Part shown: positions 20,677 through 51,727 of the stretch, one piece after another
How positions within the stretch are numbered: position 1 is the stretch's first letter
Layout: each line of letters begins with the position of its first letter
Assembly: GCA_958296175.1 (NCBI GenBank)
Contig: OY282448.1
Coordinates: forward strand, 2,150,612-2,214,611
Source of the DNA: an uncultured Chloroflexota bacterium
Lineage (GTDB): Bacteria; Chloroflexota; UBA11872
Direction of reading: 5' to 3'
Length of the DNA: 64,000 nt
Notes under the pieces: model-generated
The model's database searches: none
What the model saw: the letters and a program-made list of their open reading frames with translations, nothing else
Told to the model about the DNA's origin: nothing
Program-made: the position numbers and the translations under genes

Positions 20677-20690
20677 GCGGCGCGGGGCGG

Positions 20691-22519: not shown

Positions 22520-22589
22520 CGCCCGGCCGCAGAAGCGCGGCGCTCGCCGCCAGCCGGCGCGGACAGGAGCCGGCAGTCGTTCGCGTGGT

Positions 22590-25056: not shown

Positions 25057-25111
25057 CCGGGCCGACGGAGAGGACGTTCGACCGCTGAGTCTCCAGGTCG
25101 ACGCCCGGCGC

Positions 25112-25561: not shown

Positions 25562-25568
25562 CGTTGCA

Positions 25569-26776: not shown

Positions 26777-28270
26777 TTACAGCAGCGAGCTGGCGACGGC
26801 CGCCTGCGCCCAGGCCAGCAGCCCGCCGCCCACGATGCCGAAGGCCACCGTTGCGCCCGCCGTCACGGCCACCACGGCCGAATGCGCGTCGGCCACCGCG
26901 CCCGACGCCGCGGGCGCGTCCGCCGCCGCAGACGCCGCGGCCGGCGCGTCTTCGTCCTCCATGAACATCAGCACCACCACCCGCAGGTAGTAGAACGCCG
27001 ACACCACCGAGGTCACCACCAGCGTGACGGCCAGCCAGCCCAGGCCGGCGTCCACCGCGGATTGCAGAATGTAGAGCTTGCCCAGGAAACCGGACAGCGG
27101 CGGCACGCCCGTCAGCGAGAGCATGAAGACTGCCATCGCCGCCGCCGGCAGCATGGAGCGCCGCGCCAGACCGCGGAAGGCGCTCAGGTCGTTGCTGTCC
27201 GTCTGGGCTTCCACCACGTAGGCCACCGCGAACGCGCCGAAGGTCATCAGCGCATAGACGAAACCGTAGAACAACACCGACGGCACGCCCACGAAGTCGG
27301 CGCCCGCGTCCGTCTGGCTGACGGCGGCCACGCCCACCAGCATGTAGCCCGTGTGCGCGATGCTGGAATAGCCCAGCATGCGCTTCACGTCCGACTGCGC
27401 AATGGCTGCCAGGTTGCCCAAGATCATGGTGGCGGCGGCGATGACCGCCAGCGCCACGGTGATGTTGGCGGCCAGCGGCTCGAAGGCCAGCGTCACCACC
27501 CGCGCCAGCAGCGCCATGGCGGCCACTTTGGGGCCAACCGAGACGAATGCCGCGGCTGGCGTGGGCGCGCCCTGATAGGCGTCGGGCGTCCAGGCGTGGA
27601 ACGGCACGGCCGCCACCTTGAACCCCAGCGCGACCAGAATCAACCCCAGCGCGAACAGGCTCCAGGGTTCGTCGCCGCGGCTGGCGATGCCGTCCGCCGT
27701 CTCGGCCAGGCTGGTCGTGCCCGTCAGCCCGTAGCTCCAGGCGATGCCGTACACCAGCACCGCCGAGGCGAACGCGCCCAACGCGAAGTACTTCATGGCC
27801 GCTTCCAGCGAGGCGCGCCGGAAGCGGGTCAATCCCACCAGCACGTACACCGGAATGGCCATGGTCTCGATGGCGATGAAGGCCGTGGCCCAGTCCGCCG
27901 CCCCGACCAGCAGCATCATGCCCAGCAGCGAGAACTGCAGCAGCGCCGCAAAGTCGATGAGCGGCGCCGAGGGAAACCGCTGCGCGCCGAAGACGATGGC
28001 CAGCGAGGCCAGCAGGAGGAACAGCGTGCGGAAGAAGGTGGAATAGCCGTCCACCACCAGCTGCCCGGCGAAGAGCTCCACGGCGGCGCCGTCGGCCGGC
28101 GTGCGCATGAATAGCATCAGCGCCGCGGAACCGTTGCCGGCCAGCGCAATGCTCACGCTCATCCAGCGCCGGTCGCCGCGCGTGATTGCCGCCCACAGCA
28201 GCAGTGTCAGCGCCGTGCCCAGCACGATCAGCTCGGGAACGACGTAGCCCAGGTCGCCAGGTTCGATCAT
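26777..28270 (-). CDS. nuoN: NADH-quinone oxidoreductase subunit N
   Basis: ~14-TM antiporter-like subunit, last gene of the cluster. Confidence 0.9.
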   Translation of the reverse strand: MIEPGDLGYVVPELIVLGTALTLLLWAAITRGDRRWMSVSIALAGNGSAALMLFMRTPADGAAVELFAGQLVVDGYSTFFRTLFLLLASLAIVFGAQRFPSAPLIDFAALLQFSLLGMMLLVGAADWATAFIAIETMAIPVYVLVGLTRFRRASLEAAMKYFALGAFASAVLVYGIAWSYGLTGTTSLAETADGIASRGDEPWSLFALGLILVALGFKVAAVPFHAWTPDAYQGAPTPAAAFVSVGPKVAAMALLARVVTLAFEPLAANITVALAVIAAATMILGNLAAIAQSDVKRMLGYSSIAHTGYMLVGVAAVSQTDAGADFVGVPSVLFYGFVYALMTFGAFAVAYVVEAQTDSNDLSAFRGLARRSMLPAAAMAVFMLSLTGVPPLSGFLGKLYILQSAVDAGLGWLAVTLVVTSVVSAFYYLRVVVLMFMEDEDAPAAASAAADAPAASGAVADAHSAVVAVTAGATVAFGIVGGGLLAWAQAAVASSLL

Positions 28271-29748
28271 GGTTGCCCCGCCAGGCCGGCCGTGGCCGTG
28301 CCGAGAAGCCGCACGAACGTGTCAGGGAAAATACCCACCCACACGACTAGCACGCCCAGGCCCGCGAACGTTGCGATTTCCAGGCGGTTCGCGTCTGGAA
28401 TTGCCGCCAGGGACTGGTTGCGCAGGCGGCCCAGCACCACGCGTTGATACATCCACAGCATGTAGGCCGCCGCCAGGATCACGCCCAGCGCGGCCAGCAC
28501 GCCCACGGCCGTGTCGTAGCCGAACGCGCCGACCAGTACCAGGAACTCGCCCACGAACCCGCTCAGCAACGGAAGCCCCAGCGAGGCCAACATGAAGAAG
28601 CCGAAGATCGCCGCATACAGCGGCATCCGCGGCGCCAGGCCGCCCAGATCGTCGATGCGGCGCGTGTGGGCGCGTTCGTACACCACGCCAACCGCAAAGA
28701 ACAGCGCCGGGCTGATGACCCCGTGGCTGAGCATCTGGATGATCGCGCCGTCCATGCCGGTCTGACTGGCGGTGAAAATACCCAGCGTGACGAACCCCAT
28801 GTGGCTGACGCTGGAGTAGGCCACCAGCTTCTTGAGGTCCGGCTGCACCAGGGCCACCAGCGCGCCGTAAATGATGGCCGCCAGCGAGAGCGCCACCAGC
28901 AGGCCGCGCGTCTCGTCCACCGCCGCCGGCGTCATCGGCAGCAGGAAGCGCAGAAAACCGTAAGCGCCCATCTTGAGCAGCACGCCCGCCAGCACCATGC
29001 TGCCGGCCGTGGGCGCCTCCACGTGCGCGTCGGGCAGCCAGGTGTGGAACGGGAACATGGGCACCTTGATGGCGAAGGCCAGGAAGAAGGCCGCGAAGAC
29101 CCAGCGCTGCAGCACCAGCGGCGCGCCCGCCATTTCTGCGGGAATCGCTTCGATGTCGAACGTGCCCGTGGTCAACCGGATGGCCAGGATTGCCACCAGC
29201 ATCAACACGCTGCCGGCAAAGGTGTAGAGGAAGAACTTCACCGTGGCGTAGATGCGGCGCTCGTGCCCCCAGACTCCGATCATCAGGTACATCGGAATCA
29301 ACGCCATTTCCCAGAAGACGTAGAACAGGATGAAGTCCAGCGTGACGAACACGCCCAGCATGGCCGTCTGCAAAACGACCAGCGCCGCGAAGAACTCGCG
29401 CTCGCGCTTGTGGATGGTGAGCCAGGCCGCGCCCACCACCAGCGGTCCCAGAACGCCGGTCAGCAGGACCATCAGGATGGATACGCCGTCCACGCCTAGC
29501 TTGTAGGAAATGCCCAGGGCGGGGATCCACTCCGCCGCTTCCACGAACTGATAGCCGCTGGCGTTGTGGTCGAACCTGACCGTGACCAGGATGGCGATGG
29601 CGGCCTGCACCAGGCTGGCGGCCAGCGCTCCCAGCGCGATGGCGCCGCGGCTGCGCGCCAGCACGATGACCGGCAGCCCGACCAGCAGCGGCAGCCAGAG
29701 CGCCAGGGACAGGTAAGGAAAGTCGAGGGCGGTTTCGCCGGTTGTCAT
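28267..29748 (-). CDS. nuoM: NADH-quinone oxidoreductase subunit M
   Basis: WLPDAHVEAPTAGSMVLAGVLLKMGAYGFLRF signature. Confidence 0.9.
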   Translation of the reverse strand: MTTGETALDFPYLSLALWLPLLVGLPVIVLARSRGAIALGALAASLVQAAIAILVTVRFDHNASGYQFVEAAEWIPALGISYKLGVDGVSILMVLLTGVLGPLVVGAAWLTIHKREREFFAALVVLQTAMLGVFVTLDFILFYVFWEMALIPMYLMIGVWGHERRIYATVKFFLYTFAGSVLMLVAILAIRLTTGTFDIEAIPAEMAGAPLVLQRWVFAAFFLAFAIKVPMFPFHTWLPDAHVEAPTAGSMVLAGVLLKMGAYGFLRFLLPMTPAAVDETRGLLVALSLAAIIYGALVALVQPDLKKLVAYSSVSHMGFVTLGIFTASQTGMDGAIIQMLSHGVISPALFFAVGVVYERAHTRRIDDLGGLAPRMPLYAAIFGFFMLASLGLPLLSGFVGEFLVLVGAFGYDTAVGVLAALGVILAAAYMLWMYQRVVLGRLRNQSLAAIPDANRLEIATFAGLGVLVVWVGIFPDTFVRLLGTATAGLAGQP

Positions 29749-29752
29749 GCCG

Positions 29753-31672
29753 TCACCGGAAGAGCACCAGGCCGCCCACGGTGAGCACCAGGCCGACCAC
29801 CATCAGCAGGGCGTAGTTTTGCGCTTGTCCGGTTTGAATCCGTCCGGCCTGGCCGCCGGCGAAGCGCGACAGTTTCCCAACGCCGTTGACGATGCCGTCC
29901 ACCACGCCCGCGTCGAACCCCCACGAGAGCATAGCTGCGGCCTTGGTCAGCGCCACCATGAACCCGTCGCCCAGGTGGTCCAGGTACCACTTCTGTCGGA
30001 ACAAGGTTTCGGCGCCTGGGGCCAGCGCGCGGGCGCGCTGCGGGATTGGCAGCCCGCGGCCGTAAGCGCCCAGGGCCAGCAGCAGACCCGTCAGCGCGGC
30101 CACCGTCGACACCACGGCCAGGATCAGCGTGGGCGCCGCGCCGGCGCCTTCGAGGTGCAGCACGCCGGCGGCGTGTTCCAGATAGCCGTGGATGACGCCG
30201 TGTTCGGGCGGAATGCCCAGCACGGCCCCGCTCAGCGCCGCACCCGCCGCCAGCACGATCAGCGGCACGGTCATAACCCAGGGCGATTCGTGCGCGTGCT
30301 CGTGCAGCGCCGCGTCGCGCGGCGCGCCGTGGAAGGTCTTCACGATCATGCGGAAGGTGTAGAACGCGGTCAGCACCGAGACGGTCAGCCCGGTGGCGTA
30401 GAACAGCCAGAAGACGCCCGCGCCGTGATCGGCGGTCAGGGCGCCGCCGGGGTCGGCGGCCGCTTTCAGGAACACGTGCGCCAACACTTCATCCTTGCTC
30501 CAGAACCCGGCCAGGGGAAAGACCGCGGCCAGGGCCAGGCCGCCGAGTATGAAGGTGGCGTAGGTTACTGGCAGCTTGCGCCGCAGGCCGCCCATGCGCC
30601 GCATGTCCTGTTCGTCGTTCAGCGCGTGGATCACGCTGCCGGAGCCGAGGAACAGCAGCGCCTTGAAGAAGGCGTGCGTGGCCAGGTGAAAGATCGCCAC
30701 CGTGTAGGCGCCTGCGCCGGCCGCCAGAAACATGAGGCCCAGCTGGCTCACCGTGGAGTAGGCCAGCACGCGCTTGATGTCCGTTTGCACCAGGGCGATG
30801 GTGGCGGCCAGCACGGCCGTGAACGCGCCGACGGCCGCCACCAGCAGCAGCGCTTCCGGCGCCTGCGTGTAGAGCGGATTCATGCGCACGACCAGATACA
30901 CGCCGGCCGTCACCATGGTGGCGGCGTGAATCAGCGCGCTGACTGGCGTGGGGCCTTCCATGGCGTCGGGCAGCCACACGTGCAGCGGAAACTGCGCCGA
31001 CTTGCCCATGGCCCCGACGAACAGCAGGCAGGCGATGGCCGTCACCATGCCCGCGTCCGCCGATCCCAGCCCGGCAAAAATCTCGCGGTAGCGCAGCGTG
31101 CCGAACTCCAGGAAGGCCAGGATGATGCCGATGGCGAACCCGAAGTCCCCGATGCGGTTCACCAGGAACGCCTTCGTGGCCGCCGCGTTGGCGCTGTCGC
31201 GGTCGTACCAGTAGCCGATCAGCAGATACGAACACAGCCCCACCATCTCCCAGAAGACGAAGAGCTGCAGCAGGTTGTCGGAGATGACCAGCATGATCAT
31301 GCTGAACACGAACAGCGGAATCCAGGTGAAGAAGCGCGGCTTGTTCGCGTCGTGGTCCATGTAGCCCACCGCGTACAGCGACACCAGCGCGCTGACGCCG
31401 GTGACGACCAGCAGCATCACGATCGTCAAGGCGTCGGTCAGGAACGCGATGTCGATGGTGAAGCCGCCGCTAGCGACCCAGCGGTACAGCAGCGACTCGT
31501 CCTGGTCCGCGCCGGCGCTTGCGATCCAAAGCGCCACGGTTGCCGCAAACGACCCCACGACGGCCGCCGTGGACACCCAGCCGGTCCAGCGCGGATTGCG
31601 CCTGCCAAACAGGCCGTTGACCGCGAACGCCGCCAGCGGCAGCAGCGGGATGATCCAGGGGGCGTTCAGCAT
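29753..31672 (-). CDS. nuoL: NADH-quinone oxidoreductase subunit L
   Basis: 639 aa antiporter-like subunit with long C-terminal extension. Confidence 0.9.
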   Translation of the reverse strand: MLNAPWIIPLLPLAAFAVNGLFGRRNPRWTGWVSTAAVVGSFAATVALWIASAGADQDESLLYRWVASGGFTIDIAFLTDALTIVMLLVVTGVSALVSLYAVGYMDHDANKPRFFTWIPLFVFSMIMLVISDNLLQLFVFWEMVGLCSYLLIGYWYDRDSANAAATKAFLVNRIGDFGFAIGIILAFLEFGTLRYREIFAGLGSADAGMVTAIACLLFVGAMGKSAQFPLHVWLPDAMEGPTPVSALIHAATMVTAGVYLVVRMNPLYTQAPEALLLVAAVGAFTAVLAATIALVQTDIKRVLAYSTVSQLGLMFLAAGAGAYTVAIFHLATHAFFKALLFLGSGSVIHALNDEQDMRRMGGLRRKLPVTYATFILGGLALAAVFPLAGFWSKDEVLAHVFLKAAADPGGALTADHGAGVFWLFYATGLTVSVLTAFYTFRMIVKTFHGAPRDAALHEHAHESPWVMTVPLIVLAAGAALSGAVLGIPPEHGVIHGYLEHAAGVLHLEGAGAAPTLILAVVSTVAALTGLLLALGAYGRGLPIPQRARALAPGAETLFRQKWYLDHLGDGFMVALTKAAAMLSWGFDAGVVDGIVNGVGKLSRFAGGQAGRIQTGQAQNYALLMVVGLVLTVGGLVLFR

Positions 31673-31702
31673 CGGGGCGCACTCATCGCGTGAAGCAGGG
31701 CG

Positions 31703-32002
31703 TCACCCTCGCAGACTGTCGAGTTGGTCCACGTTGACCACCGGATACACGCGGCTCAGCGCCACCAGGATGGCAAGCCCCACGGCCACTTCCGCCGCCG
31801 CCACCGTGAGCGAGAAGATCACCAGCACGAACCCGGCCTGGTCGTCCAGATAGGCCGAGAAGGCGGCCAGCGTGACGTTGGCGCCTTGCAGCATCAGCTC
31901 GATCGACATCAGCATCACGATGGCGTTGCGGCGAATCAGCACACCCATGGCACCGATGGAAAAGATCAACGCGCCCACCACCAGAAAGCCGTTCAGCGTC
32001 AT
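31703..32002 (-). CDS. nuoK: NADH-quinone oxidoreductase subunit K
   Basis: 99 aa, three TM helices, SIELMLQGANV motif. Confidence 0.9.
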   Translation of the reverse strand: MTLNGFLVVGALIFSIGAMGVLIRRNAIVMLMSIELMLQGANVTLAAFSAYLDDQAGFVLVIFSLTVAAAEVAVGLAILVALSRVYPVVNVDQLDSLRG

Positions 32003-32643
32003 CGCGGCGATTCCTGCGCGGCCTGCGCGGCCTGTTCGGCCTGCGCCGCCGAATCAGCGCCGTTCGCCGCGGACGTCTGCGCCCGCTGGCGCGGGAAGTC
32101 GGCGCGCTCGTGCTCCTCGATGCGGCGCGCCAGCACGATTGCCCCGACGGTTGCGGCCGTCAGCATCACGCTCGCGCCCAGGAAGGGCAGCGTGTAGTCG
32201 TTGAACAACGCCACGGCCAGCGCCTCGGCGCTGCCGCCCAGTTCGGACACGGTCGCCGGCGGGAACGCGCCCTTGATCGACTCCCGCACCTCCGGCGTGC
32301 CGGCCCCGATGACGACCGCCTCCACCGCCAGCAGCAGCGCCAGCGGAATGCCCAGCCAGAGCTGCCGATGGGTCACGCGCTCTTCCGGCAGGTGCCGCAG
32401 ATCCAGCATCATCAGCGTGAACAGGAACAGCACCACAATCGCGCCCGCGTAGATGGCGATTTGCGCCACGGCCAGGAATCCGGACCCCAGGATCGCGAAG
32501 AACCCGGCCACGTGGAAGATCACCACGACCAGAGAAATGGCCGAGTGCACCGGGTTGCGCACCGAGACCATCAACAGCGACGCCGCCACCGACGCGGCGG
32601 CCAGGTACCAGAACGCGAGATGGGTTTCGATGTTGTCAGGCAT
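31999..32643 (-). CDS. nuoJ: NADH-quinone oxidoreductase subunit J
   Basis: Five-TM subunit overlapping nuoK by 4 nt. Confidence 0.85.
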   Translation of the reverse strand: MPDNIETHLAFWYLAAASVAASLLMVSVRNPVHSAISLVVVIFHVAGFFAILGSGFLAVAQIAIYAGAIVVLFLFTLMMLDLRHLPEERVTHRQLWLGIPLALLLAVEAVVIGAGTPEVRESIKGAFPPATVSELGGSAEALAVALFNDYTLPFLGASVMLTAATVGAIVLARRIEEHERADFPRQRAQTSAANGADSAAQAEQAAQAAQESPR

Positions 32644-32702
32644 CGAGACTCACCGGCGCGCGGCGCGCGCGGCTGCCGCGGCGGGGCGAGTGGAGACCGA
32701 AC

Positions 32703-33194
32703 TCAGCCACGTTCGAACCAGTTGGCAATGGCGGCGCCGGGGCCGATGTTGTGCTGTTCCGCTTCCCGATACGCCTGGTCGTTCTCGTAGATCTCGATCA
32801 TCTTCTGGCCGTCGATCAGCAGGCCGCGGCGGTCCTCGGTGACGAGGTGGAAGTCGTGCGTGCGCTGCAGGGCGTCCACCGGGCAGGCCTCGATGCAGAA
32901 GTAGCAGAACACGCAGCGCCCCACGTCGAACAGGTAGCGGTCGACGAAGCGGGTGCCGTCCGCGTTTTCGCTGGTGTCCACCCGAATCACGTCGTTGGGG
33001 CAGGCGGTCTCGCACAGGCCGCAGCCCACGCAGGTCATGCCGCCCGTCACCTCGTCGCGCCGCATGCCCACCTGGCCGCGGAAGCGGTAGCCGATGTCGC
33101 GCACGTGCTCCGGATACATCACGGTGGACGGCTTGCGCCGGCCGACCATGAGCACGGTCTTGAGTCCGGTCAGAACGCCTGATCCAAGGGGCAT
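32703..33194 (-). CDS. nuoI: NADH-quinone oxidoreductase subunit I (2x[4Fe-4S] ferredoxin)
   Basis: Two CxxCxxCxxxCP motifs (CVGCGLCETACP, CVFCYFCIEACP). Confidence 0.9.
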   Translation of the reverse strand: MPLGSGVLTGLKTVLMVGRRKPSTVMYPEHVRDIGYRFRGQVGMRRDEVTGGMTCVGCGLCETACPNDVIRVDTSENADGTRFVDRYLFDVGRCVFCYFCIEACPVDALQRTHDFHLVTEDRRGLLIDGQKMIEIYENDQAYREAEQHNIGPGAAIANWFERG

Positions 33195-33197
33195 GAG

Positions 33198-34199
33198 CTA
33201 GCTCCAGGCCATCCGCAGCGCCGCCGCCGCGAGGAGATTGAGCGCGCCAATCGGAATGAGGATCTTCCAACAGAAGTTCATCAGCTGGTCGTAGCGGAAC
33301 CGCGGCAGCGCGGCGCGGAACAGGAAGAAGGCAAAGACGAAGAGGCCGGTCTTCAGCACAAACCAGCCCACGCCGGAGATCGCCTCCAGGCCCGGAATCG
33401 TCCATCCGTGCCAGCCGCCCAGGAACAACGTGGCGGCAATGGCCGACATCAGCAGGATGTTGGCGTATTCGGCCATGAAGAAGAAGGCCCAGCGCATGCC
33501 CGAATACTCCACGTGGAAGCCCGCCACCAGCTCCGTCTCGGCCTCCGGCAGGTCCAGCGGCGCGCGGTTCGTTTCGCCCACGGCCGCGATGAGGAACAGC
33601 AGGAAGCCGATGAACTGCGGGACGATGAACCACAGACCCGCCTGCGCGTTCACGATATCCACCAGGCTGAGCGAGCCGCTGTAGACGATGACCGCCAGCA
33701 CGCCCAGGCCCAGCACCAGCTCGTAGCTGATGATTTGCGCGCTGGAGCGCAGCGCGCCCAGGTGGGCGTATTTGCTGTTCGAGGCCCAACCGGACATCAC
33801 CACGCCGTAGACCCCCAGCGACCCCATGGCCAGGAAGAACAGGACGCCCACGTTGAGGTCGGCGACCCACAGCCCGAAGGTGCGGCCAACGTCCACCGGC
33901 GGCCCGAAGGGCACCACCGCCCAGGCCGCCAGCGCCGGCGTCACCATCATCACCGGCGCAAACCAGAAGATGCCCTTGTCGGCCATGGCCGGGATCGTGT
34001 CTTCTTTGATGCCCAGTTTCAGGCCGTCGGCCGCGGTTTGCAGCGAGCCTCGCCAGCCCACGCGGTTGGGGCCGATGCGGGATTGCAAGCGGCCCAGCGT
34101 CCAGCGTTCGAATAGCACCAGCGCCAGCGGCGCCACCGGCAGCAACAGGAACACCGCCAACACCTTGGTGACGACGATGAACCAGTCCCAGAAATCCAC
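33198..34199 (-). CDS. nuoH: NADH-quinone oxidoreductase subunit H
   Basis: Eight-TM NuoH/ND1 pattern. Confidence 0.9.
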   Translation of the reverse strand: MDFWDWFIVVTKVLAVFLLLPVAPLALVLFERWTLGRLQSRIGPNRVGWRGSLQTAADGLKLGIKEDTIPAMADKGIFWFAPVMMVTPALAAWAVVPFGPPVDVGRTFGLWVADLNVGVLFFLAMGSLGVYGVVMSGWASNSKYAHLGALRSSAQIISYELVLGLGVLAVIVYSGSLSLVDIVNAQAGLWFIVPQFIGFLLFLIAAVGETNRAPLDLPEAETELVAGFHVEYSGMRWAFFFMAEYANILLMSAIAATLFLGGWHGWTIPGLEAISGVGWFVLKTGLFVFAFFLFRAALPRFRYDQLMNFCWKILIPIGALNLLAAAALRMAWS

Positions 34200-34201
34200 G
34201 C

Positions 34202-36631
34202 TCAGACCTTGTGCACGCGCACGGCGGCGCCGTCGGGCGCCCGGGGGTCGAGCTGCCGGGGGGCGGCCTCCAGGAAGCGGTCGGGCAGGCTGACCACGCC
34301 GGGCGGCACGCGGTCGGCCACCAGGGCTTTCAGATTGACTTCGCCGCCGTCCGCCGAAAGGCGGATGCGGTCGCCGTGGGCGATGGACAGCCGCTGCGCG
34401 TCGCCCGCGTTCAGTTCGGCCACCGCCTCCGGCAGCATGAGCGTCAGGCTGTCTGCGCGGCGTCCGCTGACGCCGGCGGTGTAAAGATGCTGCTCGGTGG
34501 CCAGAACGAATCCGTCCGCGGGCGCCGGCGCCGCGCCGTTGACCGCGGCGGACTCCCGCGAGCCGGGAAGCGAGGGCCGCTGCATCAGCCCGGCCAGTTC
34601 GGTGCTGATGGGCTCGTGGCTGCGCCAGCCAAAATCGGCCCCCATGGCTGCCGAGACGCGGGCAACGATCTCCCAGTCGGGGCGCGCCTTGCCCACGGGC
34701 GGAATTGCCGGAGCGAGCCGTCCCAGGCGTCCCTCGAAGTTGGTGAAGTGCCCGCCCTTTTCGGCGAAGGTCGCGCCAGGCAGCACCACGTCGGCGGCTT
34801 CGGTGGTCGCATTCATGAAGATGTCCTGCGCCACCACCAGGCGGGCGCGTTCGAGGGCCGCCTGCGCGCCCTGCGGGTTGGCCGACCCGCCCACCACGTC
34901 TTCGCCCATCACGTAGAGCGCCTGCATCGGGCCGTCGATGAAGTCGTCGAAGGCCAGGCCGGGTTCGGCGGGTACCGGAGCGCCCCAGGCGTCGGACGCC
35001 TGGCGGCGGGCCTCGTCGTCGCTCAGCGGGCGCGCGCCCGGCAGAAGGTCGGGCGCCATGCCCAGCAGGAACGTGCCGGCGGCGTTGGCGCGTTCGGGCA
35101 GGGGAAAGAGCTTCACGCCGTCATGCGCCAGCGCCAGATTGGCGGCGCCCTGCGCAATCGCTTCGGCCTTGCCCAGCGTCCACACGCCCGTATCCCAGAC
35201 CACTGCAACGGTGCCGGCCGCCTGTACGCGGCTGCGCATCGCTGTCAGCGTGTCGGCGTCGATCCCCGTCAGCGCGTGCATGTTGGGGATGTCCGCGCCG
35301 GCCAGGGCGCTCAACAGGACGGCCTCTGCCCCCGGTCGCACGCGCGCCGCGACGGTTGCGAAGTCGTCCAGCCCGCTGGCGAGCCGGGTTGCCACCAGCA
35401 GCGTGCGCCCGTCGTCGCGGGCGGCCTGCTTGACGTGCGCGCCCACCACGTTGTGCGTCTGGCCAATGTCCGCGCCCACCACCAGGATCACGTCGGATTC
35501 CAGCAGTTCCGACTGCGAGCGGGGGCCGGCGGCGCTGCCCAGCACCGCGCGCAGCGTGCGCGCGGCGGCGTGCAGGCCGCTGCTCTGGCTGTAGACGTTG
35601 TTGGTGCCCAGCACGGCGCGGGCGAACCGCTGCAGGGTGTAGTTGTCTTCGTTGGTGGTGTTCGGCGAGCCAACCACGCCCACGGCCTGCGGACCGTGCG
35701 CGTCCAGCACCTCGCGCAGACCCGCGCTGATCACGTTCAGGGCTTCGCTCCAGCTGGCGGGCTGCAGCGCGCCGTTGCGGCGGACCAGCGGCTCCGTAAT
35801 CCGCTCGCCGCTGTTGACGAACGAGTGGCCGAAGAATCCCTTGGCGCACAGGATGCCGCGGTCGGGCTCTTCCAGGCCGTTGGAGCGCGTGCGCACCACG
35901 CTGCCGTGGCGGGATTCCACCAGCAGCGAACACCCAACCGCGCAATGGGGGCAGGTGGAGGCGGTCTTCTCGGTTTGCCAGCTGCGCGCCGCGTGCTTGA
36001 ACGGGCGGCTGAGCAGCGCGCCCACCGGGCAGGTTTCGATGCACATCCCGCAGCGTTCGCAGTCCATGAACTCGTGCTGCGCCGGCGCGATGAACGTGCC
36101 CACGGCGCGTTCCACGAAGTCGAGCGCGCGCACGCCGATTTGTTCGTCGCACATGCGCACGCAGCGCCCGCAGAGGATGCAGCGGTTGTGGTTGATGAGG
36201 ATGACCTCGTTGAGGATTTCCTCCGGGTGCGCCTTGGGCACGGTCTCGTAGGGGCTCTGGAAAATCTCCTGATCGAACACCTCGTCTTGCAGCTCGCAGG
36301 TGCCGGCCTGGTCGCAGTAGGGGCAGTCCAGCGGGTGGTGCTGCAATTGCAGCTCGATCACGTGCTTGCGAATGTCCTTGATGCTCTGGCTGTCGGTCAC
36401 CACCGTCATGCCGTCGCCGGCGGGCGTGGTGCACGAGGCCGTGGGCCGCGGCGGGCCGGGCTGGACTTCCACCACGCACATGCGGCAGGCGCCGTAGGGC
36501 TTCAGCCGCGGGTCGGTGCAGAGCGTGGGAATCTCGACGCCGATGGACTCGCAGGCTTGCAGCACGGTCGCCCCGCGCGGCACCTGCACCTCCTGGCCGT
36601 CTATCGTGAGCGTGACGGTCTCGGAACTCAT
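34202..36631 (-). CDS. nuoG: NADH-quinone oxidoreductase subunit G (75 kDa Fe-S subunit)
   Basis: MSSETVTLTIDGQEVQVPRGATVLQACE...CRMCVVEV 2Fe-2S N-terminus, 4Fe-4S cysteine motifs and molybdopterin-like domain. The 34202..38044 ORF is an artefactual fusion; the true start ATG overlaps the nuoD stop (ATGA). Confidence 0.85.
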   Translation of the reverse strand: MSSETVTLTIDGQEVQVPRGATVLQACESIGVEIPTLCTDPRLKPYGACRMCVVEVQPGPPRPTASCTTPAGDGMTVVTDSQSIKDIRKHVIELQLQHHPLDCPYCDQAGTCELQDEVFDQEIFQSPYETVPKAHPEEILNEVILINHNRCILCGRCVRMCDEQIGVRALDFVERAVGTFIAPAQHEFMDCERCGMCIETCPVGALLSRPFKHAARSWQTEKTASTCPHCAVGCSLLVESRHGSVVRTRSNGLEEPDRGILCAKGFFGHSFVNSGERITEPLVRRNGALQPASWSEALNVISAGLREVLDAHGPQAVGVVGSPNTTNEDNYTLQRFARAVLGTNNVYSQSSGLHAAARTLRAVLGSAAGPRSQSELLESDVILVVGADIGQTHNVVGAHVKQAARDDGRTLLVATRLASGLDDFATVAARVRPGAEAVLLSALAGADIPNMHALTGIDADTLTAMRSRVQAAGTVAVVWDTGVWTLGKAEAIAQGAANLALAHDGVKLFPLPERANAAGTFLLGMAPDLLPGARPLSDDEARRQASDAWGAPVPAEPGLAFDDFIDGPMQALYVMGEDVVGGSANPQGAQAALERARLVVAQDIFMNATTEAADVVLPGATFAEKGGHFTNFEGRLGRLAPAIPPVGKARPDWEIVARVSAAMGADFGWRSHEPISTELAGLMQRPSLPGSRESAAVNGAAPAPADGFVLATEQHLYTAGVSGRRADSLTLMLPEAVAELNAGDAQRLSIAHGDRIRLSADGGEVNLKALVADRVPPGVVSLPDRFLEAAPRQLDPRAPDGAAVRVHKV

Positions 36632-37851
36632 CGATCGACCTCGCCCAACACTATGTCCACGCTGCCGATGATCGCCACCACGTCGGCAATCAGCGCGCCC
36701 ACGCTGATCTTTTCGATGATGGCCAGATTTACGAACGACGGTGAGCGCACGTGGCAGCGGTACGGCTCGCCGCTGCCGTCGCTGACGAAGTAGAAGCCCA
36801 GCTCGCCCTTCGGGTTCTCGATACTGAAGTAAGCCTCGCCGGGTTCCGGCTGCACGCCGTGCATGACCAGCTTGAAGTGATTGATCATCGCTTCCATGTC
36901 CACCGGCACGCGGCTGATGTCTGGCGGCGTCACCGTGGGCAGCGCCGCGTTCGAGGGCGAGCCGGACGGCAGGCCGCGCAGCGCCTCCACACACTGGCCG
37001 ATGATGCGGCAGGACTGGTACATCTCGTTCAGGCGCACCAGGTAGCGCGCGTACACGTCGCCTTCCTCGAACACCGGCAGCTCGAAGTCCACCAGGTCGT
37101 AGGCCGCGTAGGGCCGCGCCTTGCGCAGGTCCCAGGCCACGCCCGACCCGCGCAGCACTGGGCCGGTCAGCCCGTAGCTCAGGGCCTCCTCGCGCGTGAT
37201 GTGCCCCACGTCGCGCGTGCGCTCCAGAAAGACTTCGTTCTCGGTCAGCAGCGTGTCGATCTCGTGCAGCGCGTAGCCCTCCAGAAAGGCTTCCACGTTG
37301 TCCAGCCACTGGTCGCCCACGTCGTGCGGCCCGGTGCCGCCCACGCGCATGAACGAGGTGGTGAGCCGCGCACCGCAGGCTTCTTCGAACAGATACAGGA
37401 TCTTTTCGCGTTCCCGCAGCGACCACAGGAAGGCCGACATGGCGCCGATGTCCAGCCCGTGGGTGCCGATCCAGATGTGATGCGAGGCCAGCCGCGAGAG
37501 CTCCGCCACGGCCGTGCGCAGGTAGCGCGCGCGCAGCGGAATCTCGTCCGTGATGCCCATCAGCTTTTCGATGGCCATCAGGTAGCCCATGTTGTTGGAC
37601 GGCCCGGCGGTGTAGTCCATGCGGTCGGTCAGGGTGATGCCGCCGCGGTAGTCGTGCGCCTCGATCAGCTTTTCCACCCCGCGGTGCAGGTAGCCCATGT
37701 CGGCCTTGCAGCCGAGCACTTCTTCGCCGTCCAGCTCCAGCAGCAGCCGCAGCACGCCGTGCGTGCTGGGGTGCTGCGGCCCCAGGTTGAGAATCATGGA
37801 GTCCGGGCTGGTGCGTTCCAGGTCCATGCGCGGCCCCGCGTTCACCGCCAT
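36628..37851 (-). CDS. nuoD: NADH-quinone oxidoreductase subunit D (49 kDa)
   Basis: MILNLGPQHPSTHGVLRL...GYLHRGVEKL signature; start overlaps the nuoC stop (TGATG). Confidence 0.9.
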   Translation of the reverse strand: MAVNAGPRMDLERTSPDSMILNLGPQHPSTHGVLRLLLELDGEEVLGCKADMGYLHRGVEKLIEAHDYRGGITLTDRMDYTAGPSNNMGYLMAIEKLMGITDEIPLRARYLRTAVAELSRLASHHIWIGTHGLDIGAMSAFLWSLREREKILYLFEEACGARLTTSFMRVGGTGPHDVGDQWLDNVEAFLEGYALHEIDTLLTENEVFLERTRDVGHITREEALSYGLTGPVLRGSGVAWDLRKARPYAAYDLVDFELPVFEEGDVYARYLVRLNEMYQSCRIIGQCVEALRGLPSGSPSNAALPTVTPPDISRVPVDMEAMINHFKLVMHGVQPEPGEAYFSIENPKGELGFYFVSDGSGEPYRCHVRSPSFVNLAIIEKISVGALIADVVAIIGSVDIVLGEVDR

Positions 37852-38426
37852 CAGGCCTTCGCCTCGTCGTCCACGCCCGCCCAGAAGTCGTCGGGGTCCA
37901 GCGCGCCCACCAGGTCGTTGCGGTGCGCGTCTTCGGGGAACGTAGGCCCTTCCACCGGATACTCCTTGCGCAGCGGATGGCCCTCGTAGCCTTCGGGCAG
38001 CAGAATCCGCCGCAGGTCGGGGTGGCCGGTGAAGCCGATGCCAAAGAGGTCGAACACTTCCCGTTCCAGGTAGACCGCGGAGGCGTAGGTGGACGCCGCT
38101 GAGGCTACCGCCCCGCCGTCCGCCAGGCGCACGCTCACGCGCGCGTAGAGATTATTGGTCAGCGAGCGGAACTGCCATACCACCTCGAACTCGCGGCCGG
38201 AGTCGAGCGGCCAGTGCACCGCCGTGACGTCGATCAGCTGTTCCAGCCGCAGGTGCGGGTCGCCGCGCAGCGCCGCGAAGAGCGCCGGCAGCGCGCCAGC
38301 CTCAACCTCGGCCACCGGGTCGCCGTGATCCACGCGGCCGCCCAGGTACGCCGCGCCAGCGTGGTGGGACACGTGTTCCAGCACGGCGTCCGGCGCCAGG
38401 GTGGCTTCAGCCGCGGGGATCAGCAT
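37851..38426 (-). CDS. nuoC: NADH-quinone oxidoreductase subunit C (30 kDa)
   Basis: Motif EREVFDLFGIGFTGHPDLRRILLPEGYEGHPLRKEYP. Start taken at the Met immediately after the nuoA stop (ORF-track start 38462 would overlap nuoA). Confidence 0.8.
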   Translation of the reverse strand: MLIPAAEATLAPDAVLEHVSHHAGAAYLGGRVDHGDPVAEVEAGALPALFAALRGDPHLRLEQLIDVTAVHWPLDSGREFEVVWQFRSLTNNLYARVSVRLADGGAVASAASTYASAVYLEREVFDLFGIGFTGHPDLRRILLPEGYEGHPLRKEYPVEGPTFPEDAHRNDLVGALDPDDFWAGVDDEAKA

Positions 38427-38428
38427 CG

Positions 38429-38791
38429 TCAGCGGTTCCAGTCCAGCGCGCCCTTGCGCCACTCGTAGACGAACGCCGTGGCCAGGATGGCCAGGAACAC
38501 CGCGCCCACGCCAAACAGCGACACGCGGTCGTCAATCATGTTGAAGTACAGCGCCCACGGATAGAAGAAGAGCAGCTCCACGTCGAAGATCAGAAAAGTC
38601 ACCGCCACCAGATAGAAGCGGATGCTGTGGCGGCCGCGCGCGTCGCCGATGGGTTCCATGCCCGACTCGTAGGCCGTGACCTTGGCCCGGTACTTGCGGC
38701 GCGGCTTGAGCGCCATGGTGCCAACCAGGCTCCCCACGGCAAAGAGAAAGGCCAGGGCGAACAACAGGACAACGGCCACCCAACTCGGCAT
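38429..38791 (-). CDS. nuoA: NADH-quinone oxidoreductase subunit A
   Basis: YESGMEPIGDARGRHSIRFYLVAVTFLIFDVELLFFYPW is typical of NuoA/ND3. Confidence 0.85.
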   Translation of the reverse strand: MPSWVAVVLLFALAFLFAVGSLVGTMALKPRRKYRAKVTAYESGMEPIGDARGRHSIRFYLVAVTFLIFDVELLFFYPWALYFNMIDDRVSLFGVGAVFLAILATAFVYEWRKGALDWNR

Positions 38792-38830
38792 TCGAGCCCT
38801 ACGCCTGCCCTCGTGTGCGGTTCTGCGGGG

Positions 38831-38848
38831 TTGTGAACGATTTCACAA
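38831..38848. promoter_or_regulatory. Rex operator (ROP) TTGTGAACGATTTCACAA upstream of nuoA, plus a -10-like TATGAT (minus strand, ~38859-38864) just upstream of it
   Basis: Perfect match to the Rex consensus TTGTGAAnnnnTTCACAA, ~35 nt upstream of the nuoA ATG, with the rex gene immediately upstream on the same strand. Confidence 0.75.
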
Positions 38849-38928
38849 ACGCCGCGCCATCATAACGCGCCCGCGGGCAAGCGTGCGAGTGAAACGCCCG
38901 GCGCGCCAGCCGCAGCCGCAGCCGCGGT

Positions 38929-39564
38929 TCAGCGGCTGAGACAGTAGGCCAGGTACTCCAGTTCCACCGCCAGGTCCACGTGGGCCAGCTCCACGTGGTC
39001 CGGAACCTGGAGCTTGGCGGGCGCGAAGTTCAGCACGGCCCGCACGCCGGCCGCCACGGCGCGGTCCACCACCGGCTGCGCGGCTGCGGCTGGCACGGTT
39101 ACGACCACCATGTCGATGCGCTGCTCGCGCACCGCGCGCGCCAGGCGCTCGACGGGCAGCACGGTCTGGCCGCCCACGGCTGCGCCCACCATGCGCGGGT
39201 CGTTGTCGAAGGCCGCCGCCACCGTGAAGCCCTGCGCGCCAAACCCCTGGTAAGCCAGCAGCGCGCGCCCCAGGTTCCCCACGCCGATCAACGCCACGCG
39301 CCAGCCGCGGTCGATGCCCAGGATGGCGGCCAGCCGCCGCCGCAGCGGTGCGACCGCGTAGCCCACGCCGCGTTTGCCGAACGTGCCGAAATAGGTCAAA
39401 TCGCGCCTGACCTGCGCGGCCGTGAAGCCGGTGAGCTGCGCCAGCGCCCGGGACGACGCGTTGGCGCGCCCCTCCGCGTGCAGCGCGCCCAGCACGCGGT
39501 AGTAGGTGGACAACCGCCGGATCGTGGTCGGCGGCGCGGAGCGTGCGGCTCGACTCGGGACCAT
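38929..39564 (-). CDS. rex: Redox-sensing transcriptional repressor Rex
   Basis: Winged-helix N-terminus (TIRRLSTYYRVL) and Rossmann NADH-binding motif ALIGVGNLGRALL; ~210 aa. Confidence 0.85.
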   Translation of the reverse strand: MVPSRAARSAPPTTIRRLSTYYRVLGALHAEGRANASSRALAQLTGFTAAQVRRDLTYFGTFGKRGVGYAVAPLRRRLAAILGIDRGWRVALIGVGNLGRALLAYQGFGAQGFTVAAAFDNDPRMVGAAVGGQTVLPVERLARAVREQRIDMVVVTVPAAAAQPVVDRAVAAGVRAVLNFAPAKLQVPDHVELAHVDLAVELEYLAYCLSR

Positions 39565-39823
39565 CGCGCGGACTTCGCGCTTCTGCGGGCGTGCTGCGGC
39601 CGCTCACAGGATGCACGCTTTTCGCGCCCGCGGCGCGTGCGCGGCCGCCGGGCAGCGTTCGCGGGCGGCGCACGTCGGCACCCATGCCTCGCCGCGGCGT
39701 GACGGCGCGCCGCCGCGGACGGCGGGGTGTCCGCGGCGGCGCCGAACCGGCTAGCATCGTCCACCCGCGGCCGCGGCATTGGCGCGCCGCGCGCCCGACC
39801 CACCTGGAGGCGCCCCGACCACG

Positions 39824-41818
39824 ATGAGCGAAACCCGCGTCGGCGTCGACGTCGGCGGCACGTTCACCGACTTCGTGGTGACGGACGGCGAATCGCTGCA
39901 CGCATTCAAGGTGTCCAGCACGCCGGGCGACCCGGGCGAGGCGGTGCTGGAGGGGCTGCGGCGCGCCGGCGCGGGCGCGGGCGCAACCGTCGTTCACGGC
40001 TCCACGGTTGCCACCAACGCCGTGCTGGAACGGCGCGGCGCGCGCACCGCGCTGGTCACCACCGAAGGGTTTCGCGACGTGCTGGAGATCGGCCGCCAGC
40101 ACCGCCCGGAGCTCTACGCCATCGAGCCGCGCAAGCCGCCGCCGCTGATCGACCGCGGCCTGCGGCTGGAAGTCGCGGAGCGCGTGGGCGCCGACGGGGC
40201 GGTGCGCCGGCCGCTGGACCCTGCCTCGCTGGACCGGCTGGTCGAGCGCGTGCGGGCGCTGCAACCGGAAGCTGCCGCCGTCTGCCTGCTCTTCAGCTTC
40301 TTGCGGCCGTCGCACGAACGCTCGGTGCGCGCCGCGCTGCGCCGCGCCGGCGTCCGCTGGGTGTCGATTTCTTCGCAGGTGCTGCCCGAGCACCGCGAAT
40401 ACGAACGCACCAGCACCACGGTCGTGGACGCCTACGTCGCGCCGCTGATGGGGCGCTACGTCCGCCGTCTGGAGCGCGCCCTGGCGGGCAGGCTCTGGAT
40501 CGTGCAGTCCAGCGGCGGCGTGCTGCGCTCCGCGGAAGCCGCCGCCGCCCCGGTGCAAACCGTGCTCAGCGGCCCCGCGGCGGGCGTGGCCGGGGCGCGC
40601 GCGGTGGCCGCCGCCTCCGGGTTCGACCATATCGTCACGCTGGACATGGGCGGCACTTCCACCGACGTTGCCATTTGTCCGGGCGAGCCGCTGCGCCGCA
40701 CCGACGCAACGATTGGCGGGCTGCCCGTGGCGATTCCGATGACCGACATTCACACCGTGGGCGCGGGCGGCGGCTCCGTGGCGGCGCGCGACGACGTGGG
40801 CGGCCTGCGCGTCGGCCCCCGCAGCGCCGGCGCCGTGCCCGGGCCGGCCGCCTACGGCCGCGGCGGCCGCCAGCCCACCGTCACCGACGCCAACGTGGTG
40901 CTGGGGCGCTTGCCCGCGGGCGCGGCGCTGGCCGACGACGTGGCGCTGGACGCCGCGGCCGCGGCCGCCGCCGTCGACCGGCTGCTGCCGGCGGCCGCGC
41001 GCTCTCCCCAGGCGCGCATCCACGCCGCCGCCAGCGTCGTCGCCGTGGCAGACGCGCACATGGAGCGCGCTTTGCGCGTCATCACGCTGGAGCGCGGCTA
41101 CGACCCGCGCGACTTCGTGCTGGTGGCCTTTGGCGGCGCGGGGCCGCTGCACGGCTGCGCGCTTGCCGAACGCCTGGAGATCGACCGCGTGCTGGTTCCG
41201 CGCTATCCGGGCGTGCTCTCGGCGCTGGGCGCGCTCAGCGGCGAGCACGTGCGCGAATATGCGGCCACGCTGCTGCGGCCCGCCGCCGCGGCCAGCGCGC
41301 CAGCGGTGCGCGCGGCTTTCGCGCGGCTGGAACGCACGGCGCGGCGCGACTTCCAGGGCGCGGGCCGCCCGCAGCTGCGCCGCCGCCTCGATCTGCGCTA
41401 CGCGGGCCAGTCGTTCGAACTCACAGTGCCGCTGCGCGGCCTAGGCATTGCCCGCGCCGTGCGCGCCTTTCACGCCCGCCATCAGGAGCGCTACGCGCAC
41501 AGCCGCCCCGAGGCGCCGGTGGAAATTGTGGTCGCGCGTCTGGTGGCCGCGGTTGCGCGGCCGCCGCTGCCGCCCACGCGGCCGCCGGCTGCCGGCGCCC
41601 CGCGCGCACAGCGCGCGCCCGTCGTCGTCGGCGAGACCGCGCGCGGCGCCCGCGTGTTTCAGCGCGCCGAGCTGCCCGGCGGCTTCCGTGCGCACGGGCC
41701 GCTGCTGGTGCTGCAGGACGACGCCACGACCTGGGTGCCGCCGGGGTGGTTTGCTACAGTCGATCCGCAGGCCGCGCTCATCCTCAGCCGTTCCCGAACG
41801 CGCGGCGGCCCTGAGTAA
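39824..41818 (+). CDS. Hydantoinase/oxoprolinase family protein (HyuA-like, N-methylhydantoinase A family)
   Basis: RVGVDVGGTFTDFVV N-terminus and second ASKHA motif VTLDMGGTSTDVAI; ~664 aa. No HyuB partner adjacent. Start set at MSETR within the 39779 ORF. Confidence 0.75.
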   Translation: MSETRVGVDVGGTFTDFVVTDGESLHAFKVSSTPGDPGEAVLEGLRRAGAGAGATVVHGSTVATNAVLERRGARTALVTTEGFRDVLEIGRQHRPELYAIEPRKPPPLIDRGLRLEVAERVGADGAVRRPLDPASLDRLVERVRALQPEAAAVCLLFSFLRPSHERSVRAALRRAGVRWVSISSQVLPEHREYERTSTTVVDAYVAPLMGRYVRRLERALAGRLWIVQSSGGVLRSAEAAAAPVQTVLSGPAAGVAGARAVAAASGFDHIVTLDMGGTSTDVAICPGEPLRRTDATIGGLPVAIPMTDIHTVGAGGGSVAARDDVGGLRVGPRSAGAVPGPAAYGRGGRQPTVTDANVVLGRLPAGAALADDVALDAAAAAAAVDRLLPAAARSPQARIHAAASVVAVADAHMERALRVITLERGYDPRDFVLVAFGGAGPLHGCALAERLEIDRVLVPRYPGVLSALGALSGEHVREYAATLLRPAAAASAPAVRAAFARLERTARRDFQGAGRPQLRRRLDLRYAGQSFELTVPLRGLGIARAVRAFHARHQERYAHSRPEAPVEIVVARLVAAVARPPLPPTRPPAAGAPRAQRAPVVVGETARGARVFQRAELPGGFRAHGPLLVLQDDATTWVPPGWFATVDPQAALILSRSRTRGGPE

Positions 41819-41853: not shown

Positions 41854-42768
41854 ATGCCCGTAATCGAAGTGCGCGATCTTGCCAAGACCTACGGCGACCT
41901 GGAAGCCGTGCGCGGCGTGTCGTTCGAGGTCGTCGAGGGCGAGGTCTTTGGCCTGCTGGGCCCCAACGGCGCCGGCAAGACCACCACCGTGGAAATCCTG
42001 GAAGGGCTGCGCACCCGCGACCGCGGCCACGTGCGCGTGCTGGGTCTCGATCCAGCCAACGCCGGCCCCAAGCTCAAGCAGCAGCTGGGCGTGCAGCTGC
42101 AGAACGTGGCGCTCTATCCCCGCCTGCGCGTCCACGAGGTCATCGGCCTCTTCGGATCGTTCTACGGCCTGCGCGCCGACACCGACCGCCTGGTCGAACT
42201 GATGGGCCTGCACGACCGCCGCAACGCGCGCATCAGCGAACTTTCCGGCGGCCAGGCGCAGCGCCTGTCGGTGGCGCTGGCCATCGTCAACCGCCCCCAC
42301 CTGGTCTTTCTGGACGAGCCGTCCACCGGCATGGACCCGCAGGCGCGGCGGAATCTGTGGGACATCATCGAAGGCTTTCGCGCCGACGGCATGACCGTGG
42401 TGCTCACCACGCACTACATGGAGGAGGCCGAACGGCTCTGCGACCGCGTGGCGGTTATGGACCACGGGCACATCATTGCGCTGGACACGCCGCGCGCCCT
42501 GGTGCGCGCGAACTTCGAGGAAGACGCCATCGAGTTCACCTCCAGCAACGGCGTGAGCGTGGACGCGCTGCGCGAGCTGGACGCCGTGAGCAACGCGACC
42601 GGCCAGGCCGGTTCTTTCAGCATCTTCAGCAGCGACATTCCCCGCACCATGGGCAGCCTGCTGGCGTTCGCGCGCGGCCAGGACGTTCCCTTGGAAGGCA
42701 TGCGCGTGCGCCAGGCCACGCTGGAAGACGTGTTCCTCAAGCTCACCGGAAGGACCTTGCGAGATTGA
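41854..42768 (+). CDS. ABC transporter ATP-binding protein (ABC-2/DrrA-like)
   Basis: Walker A GPNGAGKTT, ABC signature LSGGQAQRL, Walker B LVFLDEPSTGMD. Confidence 0.85.
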   Translation: MPVIEVRDLAKTYGDLEAVRGVSFEVVEGEVFGLLGPNGAGKTTTVEILEGLRTRDRGHVRVLGLDPANAGPKLKQQLGVQLQNVALYPRLRVHEVIGLFGSFYGLRADTDRLVELMGLHDRRNARISELSGGQAQRLSVALAIVNRPHLVFLDEPSTGMDPQARRNLWDIIEGFRADGMTVVLTTHYMEEAERLCDRVAVMDHGHIIALDTPRALVRANFEEDAIEFTSSNGVSVDALRELDAVSNATGQAGSFSIFSSDIPRTMGSLLAFARGQDVPLEGMRVRQATLEDVFLKLTGRTLRD

Positions 42769-43853
42769 GCGCCTTCGTTCCCCTGCTGCTGGCCAACCAC
42801 CGCGAATTCGTGCGCGACCGCACCGCCTTGTTCTGGACGCTGGCGTTCCCGATTCTCTTCGTCGGCATCTTCAGCATCGTGTTGAGCCGCGGCGACGATG
42901 GGGCCAGCTATGCCGTGGGCTTGGTGGTGGAGGACGACTCGCCGCAGGCCCAGGCGCTGGCGCGGCTGCTGGCGGAGGTGAACGCCTTCGAGCTGACCCA
43001 GGGCGGGCGCGGCGCGGAGATCGACAGCCTGCGGGACGGCGACCGCCGCGCCGTGGTGGTCGTCCCCGCCGGGTTCGGCGCGTCCATAGATGCCGGCGCC
43101 CCGCAGCCGCTCCAGGTCCATTACGACGCCGCGCAGGCCACCACCCAGCAGGTCGTCATCCCCGTGCTGCTGGGCGCCGTCGAGGCCGCCGACCGCGCGC
43201 TCACGCAGACCAGCCCCATGGTCACGGTCGAGTTCGTGACGCTGCAATCGGAGCGGCTGGAGACCATCGACTTCATCATGCCCGGCATCATTGCGATGAG
43301 CGTGATGAACGCGGGCGTCTTCGGCGCTATCAACATGGTGTCGCTCCGCGAGCGCCGCGTACTGCGGCGCCTCTCGGCCACGCCGCTGCCGGCCTGGGCG
43401 CTGGTGGGGGCCGACGTGGTCTTCCGCTTGGTTGTGCTGCTGGTGCAGGCCGCGCTGCTGCTGGTGCTGGCCGTGCTGATCGGCGGCGTCAAGGTCCAGG
43501 CCGCCAACCTGCCGGCGCTGGCGGGCGTGACGCTGCTCGGCGGGCTGGCCTTCCTGGCCATCGGTTTCTTCCTGGGCGCCTTCGCCAAGACCGAGCAAGG
43601 GTTCTTTCCCATCGCCCAGGTCGTCACCTTTCCCATGCTCTTCCTGTCCGGCGTCTTCTTCCCCGTGGACGCGATGCCCGACTGGATTCGCCCGCTGGTC
43701 AGCGCCTTGCCCTTGACCTATCTGGGCGACGGCATGCGGCAGCTGATGGTGGGCGGCGCGCCGGTGAACGCCATGGTCGTCAACGTGGGCGTGCTGGCTG
43801 CGTTTCTGGTGGTGTTCTTCGGCCTGGCGGTGCGCTTCTTCCGCTACGAGTAG
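42765..43853 (+). CDS. ABC-2 type transporter permease
   Basis: Six-TM ABC-2 permease pattern directly downstream of the ATPase. Start proposed at TTG overlapping the ATPase stop; it is the 3' part of the artefactual 41448..43853 ORF. Confidence 0.7.
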   Translation: MSAFVPLLLANHREFVRDRTALFWTLAFPILFVGIFSIVLSRGDDGASYAVGLVVEDDSPQAQALARLLAEVNAFELTQGGRGAEIDSLRDGDRRAVVVVPAGFGASIDAGAPQPLQVHYDAAQATTQQVVIPVLLGAVEAADRALTQTSPMVTVEFVTLQSERLETIDFIMPGIIAMSVMNAGVFGAINMVSLRERRVLRRLSATPLPAWALVGADVVFRLVVLLVQAALLLVLAVLIGGVKVQAANLPALAGVTLLGGLAFLAIGFFLGAFAKTEQGFFPIAQVVTFPMLFLSGVFFPVDAMPDWIRPLVSALPLTYLGDGMRQLMVGGAPVNAMVVNVGVLAAFLVVFFGLAVRFFRYE

Positions 43854-51441: not shown

Positions 51442-51586
51442 GTCCCGATATTCGCCCCGCGGCCGCGCCTCGCGCGCGCCCCCAGGCTACCTGTCTTCCT
51501 GGAGCCGGCGGGGGCGCGCCGCCCGCGGCGGAGGCCGTTCGAGGGGCGGCGGCGCCGCCGAGTGGGCGGGATTGCGCTGCGGCGGG

Positions 51587-51615
51587 TTGACCGTGGGCGG
51601 CACTACATCTAGTAT
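51587..51615 (+). promoter_or_regulatory. Putative strong sigma-70-type promoter for dnaN (TTGACC, 17 nt spacer, TAGTAT)
   Basis: Near-consensus hexamers with optimal spacing ~110 nt upstream of the dnaN GTG, which is preceded by GGAGAG. Confidence 0.45.
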
Positions 51616-51727
51616 CCGCGCGAGCTTGGGGTCGATATGTGCGGTAGTCCGCTCTGACATCGGCGTCACCCAGGCCGAGAGACGTGAGGACGTTGGAGCG
51701 TCACGCAGCACATCGGAGAGTCACGGC

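Follow-up and report, generated by a model that had tools for sequence, protein, structure and literature searches.

A perfect Rex-consensus palindrome between rex and the nuo operon in an uncultured Chloroflexota lineage

Results

The rex-nuoA spacer carries a perfect Rex-type palindrome

We find that the spacer between rex and nuoA in the 64-kb window (i.e., the whole stretch of DNA analysed here) holds an 18-bp palindrome that very probably serves as a Rex operator (ROP) within the nuo core promoter, where Rex would repress the nuo genes and NADH would relieve this repression. The features concerned are the following, listed in the order in which they are met on the minus strand:

39564..38929, minus strand: rex, redox-sensing transcriptional repressor, 211 aa (Pfam PF06971 and PF02629)
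38792..38928, minus strand: rex-nuoA spacer, 137 nt, containing the putative nuo promoter, the operator and the 5' leader
38889..38884, minus strand: weak -35-like element CTCGCA, 19 nt upstream of the -10-like hexamer, aligning with (T/C)TCGC(A/G) in relatives
38864..38859, minus strand: -10-like hexamer TATGAT, read directly, 93% conserved, 10 nt upstream of the palindrome
38831..38848, no strand assigned: putative Rex operator TTGTGAACGATTTCACAA, a perfect 18-bp inverted repeat of the form TTGTGAA-N4-TTCACAA
38791..38429, minus strand: nuoA, 120 aa (Pfam Oxidored_q4, E 2e-30), heading the operon
26777..38428, minus strand: nuoC, nuoD, nuoG, nuoH, nuoI, nuoJ, nuoK, nuoL, nuoM and nuoN, assigned with Pfam

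The initial annotation had described a perfect palindromic match to the Rex consensus at about 38831-38848, situated about 35 nt upstream of the nuoA ATG and just downstream of a TATGAT -10-like hexamer, with rex as the next gene upstream on the same strand. Sequence and coordinates proved exact: TTGTGAACGATTTCACAA has 0 mismatches to the consensus TTGTGAANNNNTTCACAA, and read on the minus strand (i.e., in the sense of nuoA) the box is TTGTGAA-ATCG-TTCACAA, or TTGTGAAATCGTTCACAA. The placement of the hexamer (a gap of 10 nt on the minus strand) and the order of the genes (both on the minus strand with the 137-nt spacer between them) were also borne out, while the position upstream of nuoA stood with a corrected distance, which we measured on the minus strand as 39 nt from box to ATG.

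Scanning the 64-kb window for TTGTGAANNNNTTCACAA with up to 3 mismatches tolerated returned the box at 38831-38848 and nothing else, in agreement with the earlier statement that the window has no second full site; the runner-up, at 3861, has 4 mismatches and lies within a coding region. From base composition, a perfect match is expected by chance 5.7e-11 times per position and 3.6e-6 times per window. This expectation is low because the window has a G+C content of 71.5% and 10 of the 14 specified bases of the Rex consensus are A or T. No perfect match arose in any of 100 dinucleotide-preserving shuffles of the window. With about 4e-6 matches expected per window, the box is not a chance occurrence. 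We also searched the region upstream of rex (39565-39778) for a second or weaker Rex site or half-sites and found none apart from a lone TCACA at 39604, so nothing points to autoregulation of rex in this genome.

The adjacent gene encodes a Rex protein

By its sequence, the protein encoded next to the palindrome is a full-length Rex. It combines an N-terminal winged-helix domain (Put_DNA-bind_N, PF06971; E 5.8e-16, residues 11-56) with a C-terminal Rossmann domain (CoA_binding, PF02629; E 6e-20), which is the architecture of Rex, and its residues 10-208 align with Thermus aquaticus Rex (3IKT/1XCB) with an E value of about 1e-46. More specifically, the recognition-helix/wing stretch reads TAAQVRRDLTYFGTFGKRGVGY in the window protein and TAFQVRKDLSYFGSYGTRGVGY in T. 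aquaticus Rex, with the conserved recognition segment QVRrDLtYFGtfGkRGVGY. The dinucleotide-binding loop GxGxxG is present as GVGNLG (GMGRLG in T. aquaticus), the FD.DP motif with the acidic residue after beta-2 as AFDNDP (FFDVDP in T. aquaticus), and LNFAP is conserved between the two proteins. By homology, the window Rex would tell NADH from NAD+ and change its conformation. Its named relatives in the database are redox-sensing transcriptional repressors Rex from Chloroflexota metagenome-assembled genomes, the nearest other sequence being about 72% identical.

The palindrome is conserved in relatives with a long rex-nuoA spacer

Reference genomes were scanned with the window Rex protein and 41 loci were returned. 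In 21 of these (L001-L020 and L033; Rex 60-74% identical), nuoA, nuoC and nuoD come after rex. Three more relatives (L042-L044; Rex 59-65% identical) were obtained from an exact-protein look-up. In all 21 loci of the first set, the rex-nuoA spacer includes a box that deviates from the consensus at no more than 2 positions, namely TTGTGAAAATGATCACAA in 20 of them and TTGTGAAATTGATCACCA in one. The three additional relatives have the same layout as the other long-spacer loci and carry TTGTGAATTTGATCACCA, TTGTGAAAATCTTCACCA and TTGTGAAATTGATCACCA, respectively; the spacer of the last of them (L044) is identical to that of L020, and the two may be the same organism. Conservation upstream of nuoA in relatives, on which the initial annotation had made its reading depend, was thus found in 24 of 24 long-spacer loci (spacers of about 90-130 nt; Rex 59-74% identical), each time with at most 2 mismatches. 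In the 415 kb of DNA fetched, sites with 2 or fewer mismatches number 27, of which 24 are these spacer boxes and 3 lie directly upstream of rex. The gene order rex->nuoA-C-D-G is shared by 29 related loci, comprising these 24 and the five more distant ones described below.

Conservation in the spacer is concentrated on two elements. In the spacer alignment, identity to the window is 92% over the 14 arm positions of the box, 50% over its central N4, 93% over the TATGAT hexamer and 41% over the remaining 113 nt. Among the 24 spacer boxes the left arm TTGTGAA is invariant and the right arm changes at two positions only (T12->A and A17->C), while the central N4 is free to vary (ATCG, AATG, ATTG, TTTG and AATC). 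Neither of the right-arm changes is ever compensated on the left arm, which shows that the sequences of the two half-sites are conserved, and not base pairing between them.

The box lies just downstream of a -10-like hexamer

Across the window and the 24 relatives, 31-39 nt separate the box from the nuoA ATG that lies downstream of it, and the box follows a TATNAT hexamer at a distance of 8-10 nt. The hexamer occurs in relatives as TATGAT, TATCAT and TATTAT; position 4 alone varies, and the retained T-A-T..A-T pattern is the one expected of a functional -10, as which we regard this putative element. The assignment of CTCGCA as the -35 is tentative, since it matches TTGACA poorly; in relatives the spacing between the corresponding (T/C)TCGC(A/G) and the -10 is 18 nt and the TCGC core is kept. 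A scan of positions 38300-40000 for consensus sigma-70 promoters called none, the -35 being too weak, and the nuo promoter is therefore argued from conservation.

Downstream of the box (window 38792-38830), a conserved G-rich element is located about 20-25 nt ahead of the nuoA start codon, as GAGGG in the window and AGGGGA in relatives. No such conservation is seen immediately 5' of the ATG, the usual place of a Shine-Dalgarno sequence. The start context of nuoA itself (ATGCC.AG.TGG) is conserved in relatives.

The palindrome moves upstream of rex where the spacer is short

Five more distant loci from three lineages (L045-L049; Rex 55-59% identical, 60-62% G+C) show the gene order hydantoinase<-|rex->nuoA-C-D-G with a rex-nuoA spacer of 39-51 nt that has no box. 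The lone conserved island upstream of rex in these loci, TATGTGATA(A/T)(A/T)TTTCAC(G/A)(T/C)ACTCAAA, is located about 65-115 nt upstream of the gene (L045 3888-3905, L046 3935-3952, L047 3934-3951). Within it, ATGTGAT-N4-TTCACGT or -TTCACAC forms a Rex-like palindrome that differs from the consensus at 3-4 positions, and in L045, L046, L048 and L049 the palindrome is extended by the arms GAGTA...TACTC. The simplest reading of this arrangement is that rex and nuo would form one operon with a Rex-controlled promoter upstream of rex. The palindrome suggests that this putative rex-nuo operon is autoregulated and possibly reflects a shifted half-site preference. Because the palindrome moves upstream of rex when the spacer shrinks, the box stays with whichever promoter serves nuo, a pattern that would be difficult to account for if box and rex were unrelated.

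Where rex is not beside nuo (L021-L029 and L050), no box was found within 4 kb of rex. In two SAR202 loci and one Gemmatimonadota locus, a Rex box with 1-2 mismatches lies directly upstream of rex (L030 3873-3890, L031 3875-3892, L041 3943-3960). By its placement, this box indicates probable autoregulation of rex in those lineages, unlike in the window.

The nuo operon lacks nuoB, nuoE and nuoF

The operon downstream of the box comprises 11 genes in the order A-C-D-G-H-I-J-K-L-M-N (26777-38791, minus strand), and the genes that follow nuoA adjoin or overlap one another. A search of the whole 64-kb window with Pfam and six-frame motifs found no nuoB, nuoE or nuoF; nuoG is present in the operon although nuoE and nuoF are absent. 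These three genes are likewise absent from the operon in all of the relatives examined (L001-L020, L033 and L042-L049), and nuoC directly follows nuoA in 29 of 29 related loci. As the nuoA-nuoC junction recurs in every locus, the absence of nuoB, nuoE and nuoF is a trait of the lineage and not an assembly fault. NuoB is the subunit of the N2 cluster and is indispensable, and NuoE and NuoF are the NADH-oxidising subunits of complex I. The three genes must be located elsewhere, and with nuoE and nuoF missing from the operon, the logic of an NADH sensor controlling an NADH dehydrogenase depends on genes outside it. A survey of complex I (PMC4758237) makes no mention of Chloroflexi and contains nothing on clusters without nuoB.

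Genes surrounding rex and nuo

The window contains two genes of the hydantoinase/oxoprolinase A family (39779-41818, plus strand; 49438-51441, minus strand). The first lies upstream of rex and is divergent from it, an arrangement also seen in 10 of 10 relatives with annotated gene context; it is followed in the window by an ABC-2 exporter pair (41854-43853), as it is in L042 and L043. The gene for the DNA polymerase III beta clamp, dnaN (51233-52885, plus strand), is present, and no dnaA was seen in the window. The long dnaN ORF overlaps the end of the opposite-strand hydantoinase gene, an overlap typical of a spurious N-terminal extension in high-GC DNA; its clamp domains begin only at about residue 168, and translation is therefore likely to start close to 51.7 kb. 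On the other side of nuo, a biotin transporter gene (BioY, 25551-26207) is convergent with nuoN, whose end is about 570 nt away, and a fatty-acid synthesis cluster occupies 13273-25561 (fabD-like, fabG-like, biotin carboxylase, FabH-like, FabF-like and biotin carboxyl carrier genes).

Alternative explanations for the palindrome

The core 16 bp of the box match the CRP-type operator TGTGA-N6-TCACA, and the palindrome could be a CRP/FNR-family site controlling nuo, with the adjacency of rex being coincidental. The CRP core is perfect both in the window box and in TTGTGAAAATGATCACAA, the commonest variant in relatives, which departs from the Rex consensus at position 12 and keeps the CRP core. 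Variants at position 7 or position 12 are, however, known among footprinted Streptomyces ROPs (PMC5355995). Two features of the left arm that are specific to Rex, the outer TT and the A at position 7, do not vary among the 24 spacer boxes, whereas the CRP core is broken to TCACC in four loci (L020 and L042-L044). Location does not fit either: being downstream of the -10-like hexamer, the box is not compatible with class I or class II activation by CRP, for which, given the putative promoter, it would have to be near -41.5 or -61.5. None of the roughly 55 ORFs of the 64-kb window is a CRP/FNR-family gene, while rex adjoins nuoA in 29 loci and the palindrome appears upstream of rex where the spacer collapses. 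Position relative to the -10, adjacency of rex and conservation of the flanking bases all favour Rex, and we consider control by a CRP/FNR-family protein improbable.

An inverted repeat could also act as RNA, either by protecting the nuo mRNA with a stem-loop at its 5' end or by serving as a terminator or attenuator of rex. The predicted fold of the spacer does include a 7-bp stem with a 4-nt loop, which would be near the 5' end of the inferred nuo transcript. The fold of the spacer is no more stable than that of shuffled sequence (z = -0.09), the scan of 38300-40000 found no terminator-like site and no U-tract, no Rfam family was found in the whole window, and T12->A and A17->C are never compensated, so that pairing is not conserved. 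Given the unexceptional fold, the missing terminator-like site and the absence of covariation, we rejected the hairpin or terminator reading, which is very improbable. Finally, a chance match or a relic with no present function is barely credible with 3.6e-6 matches expected per window and with position and sequence kept although Rex is 59-74% and the other spacer sequence 41% identical.

Discussion

We favour the reading of the palindrome as a Rex operator in the nuo core promoter. The transcription start, the binding of Rex, the direction of regulation (repression) and the response to NADH at nuo are here modelled on established Rex behaviour in Streptomyces, Thermus, Bacillus and Thermotoga. 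The spacer would hold a promoter dedicated to nuo, made up of the weak -35 CTCGCA, a 19-nt gap and the -10 TATGAT. As the operator starts 10 nt after the -10, it would cover roughly +4 to +21 of the nuo transcript. At a low NADH/NAD+ ratio, a Rex dimer produced from the gene immediately upstream would bind the two TTGTGAA half-sites and block RNA polymerase, at initiation or at promoter escape, and would also stop any read-through from rex. When NADH accumulates (e.g., when the respiratory chain is limited), NADH would bind the Rossmann domains, and the NADH-bound dimer would close and leave the DNA. The nuo genes would then be transcribed, which would provide more capacity to reoxidise NADH.

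The closest parallel is found in Streptomyces. In S. avermitilis, Rex binds the ROP of the nuoA1 promoter as determined by EMSA, ChIP and footprinting, its binding there is weakened by NADH, and nuoA1 is up-regulated upon deletion of rex (PMC5355995). Control of nuoA-N through Rex and its ROP is also reported for S. coelicolor (Brekasis and Paget 2003, as cited in PMC6018154), and the structural basis of NADH-induced release has been described for several Rex proteins (PMC6125430). The window shares with Streptomyces an 18-bp operator of the TTGTGAANNNNTTCACAA type in the nuoA promoter region and a target that is the operon for the proton-pumping NADH dehydrogenase, the Streptomyces repressor being a Rex released by NADH.

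The two systems differ in several respects. The window belongs to Chloroflexota and Streptomyces to Actinomycetota. The nuoA1 ROP of S. avermitilis is imperfect (TTGTGACCTGCTTCACAT), unlike the perfect box of the window, and it lies at -42..-16, where it overlaps the -35, whereas the window box is just downstream of the -10-like hexamer. The window operon has no nuoB, nuoE or nuoF, unlike nuoA-N of Streptomyces. In addition, rex is immediately upstream of nuoA in the window, while the rex of Streptomyces is cotranscribed with hemACD and not linked to nuo (PMC5355995). The initial annotation had called the arrangement a locus organisation reported for Streptomyces; what is reported there is the regulation of nuo, and the adjacency of rex and nuo is a feature of this Chloroflexota lineage.

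The closest solved relatives of the window Rex by sequence are those of Thermus aquaticus and T. thermophilus (PDB 1XCB, 2DT5 and, with operator DNA, 3IKT). They share with it the winged-helix N-terminal domain, the Rossmann NAD(H) domain and the C-terminal helix region; identity is only moderate. Ravcheev et al. (2012, J Bacteriol 194:1145; RegPrecise; cited in PMC6018154) reportedly found Rex orthologues and the motif TTGTGAANNNNTTCACAA conserved across several phyla including Chloroflexi, with a regulon content that is said to be lineage-specific. The window box fits this picture of a generalized Rex motif across phyla, and the lineage, represented by metagenome-assembled genomes, was probably not available in 2012. 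In the literature searchable to us, which did not include that study, we found no description of rex-nuo adjacency or of a Rex regulon in Chloroflexota.

The unusual content of the operon allows a more speculative reading, which we consider unlikely: the lineage might assemble complex I from modules that are separately encoded and separately regulated, with Rex setting the scaffold of membrane and Q modules, and NuoEF and NuoB being supplied from elsewhere and possibly shared or swapped with another electron-input module. If this were true, Rex would switch the composition of the enzyme and not simply its amount.

With a canonical operator placed before a canonical class of Rex target, our findings leave the knowledge of Rex and of complex I regulation unchanged. 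They make modest additions, namely a conserved linkage of regulator, operator and target, two promoter layouts and an unusual gene content of the operon. One regulatory module would thus exist in two layouts, with the operator either between rex and nuoA or upstream of a rex-nuo operon, and autoregulation of rex would follow only in the second. The tight linkage of regulator, operator and target would also offer a convenient minimal system in which the Rex of this phylum could be studied in a heterologous host. The result provides a confident regulatory annotation for a Chloroflexota lineage that is uncultured, in which Rex probably couples the synthesis of complex I to the NADH/NAD+ ratio.
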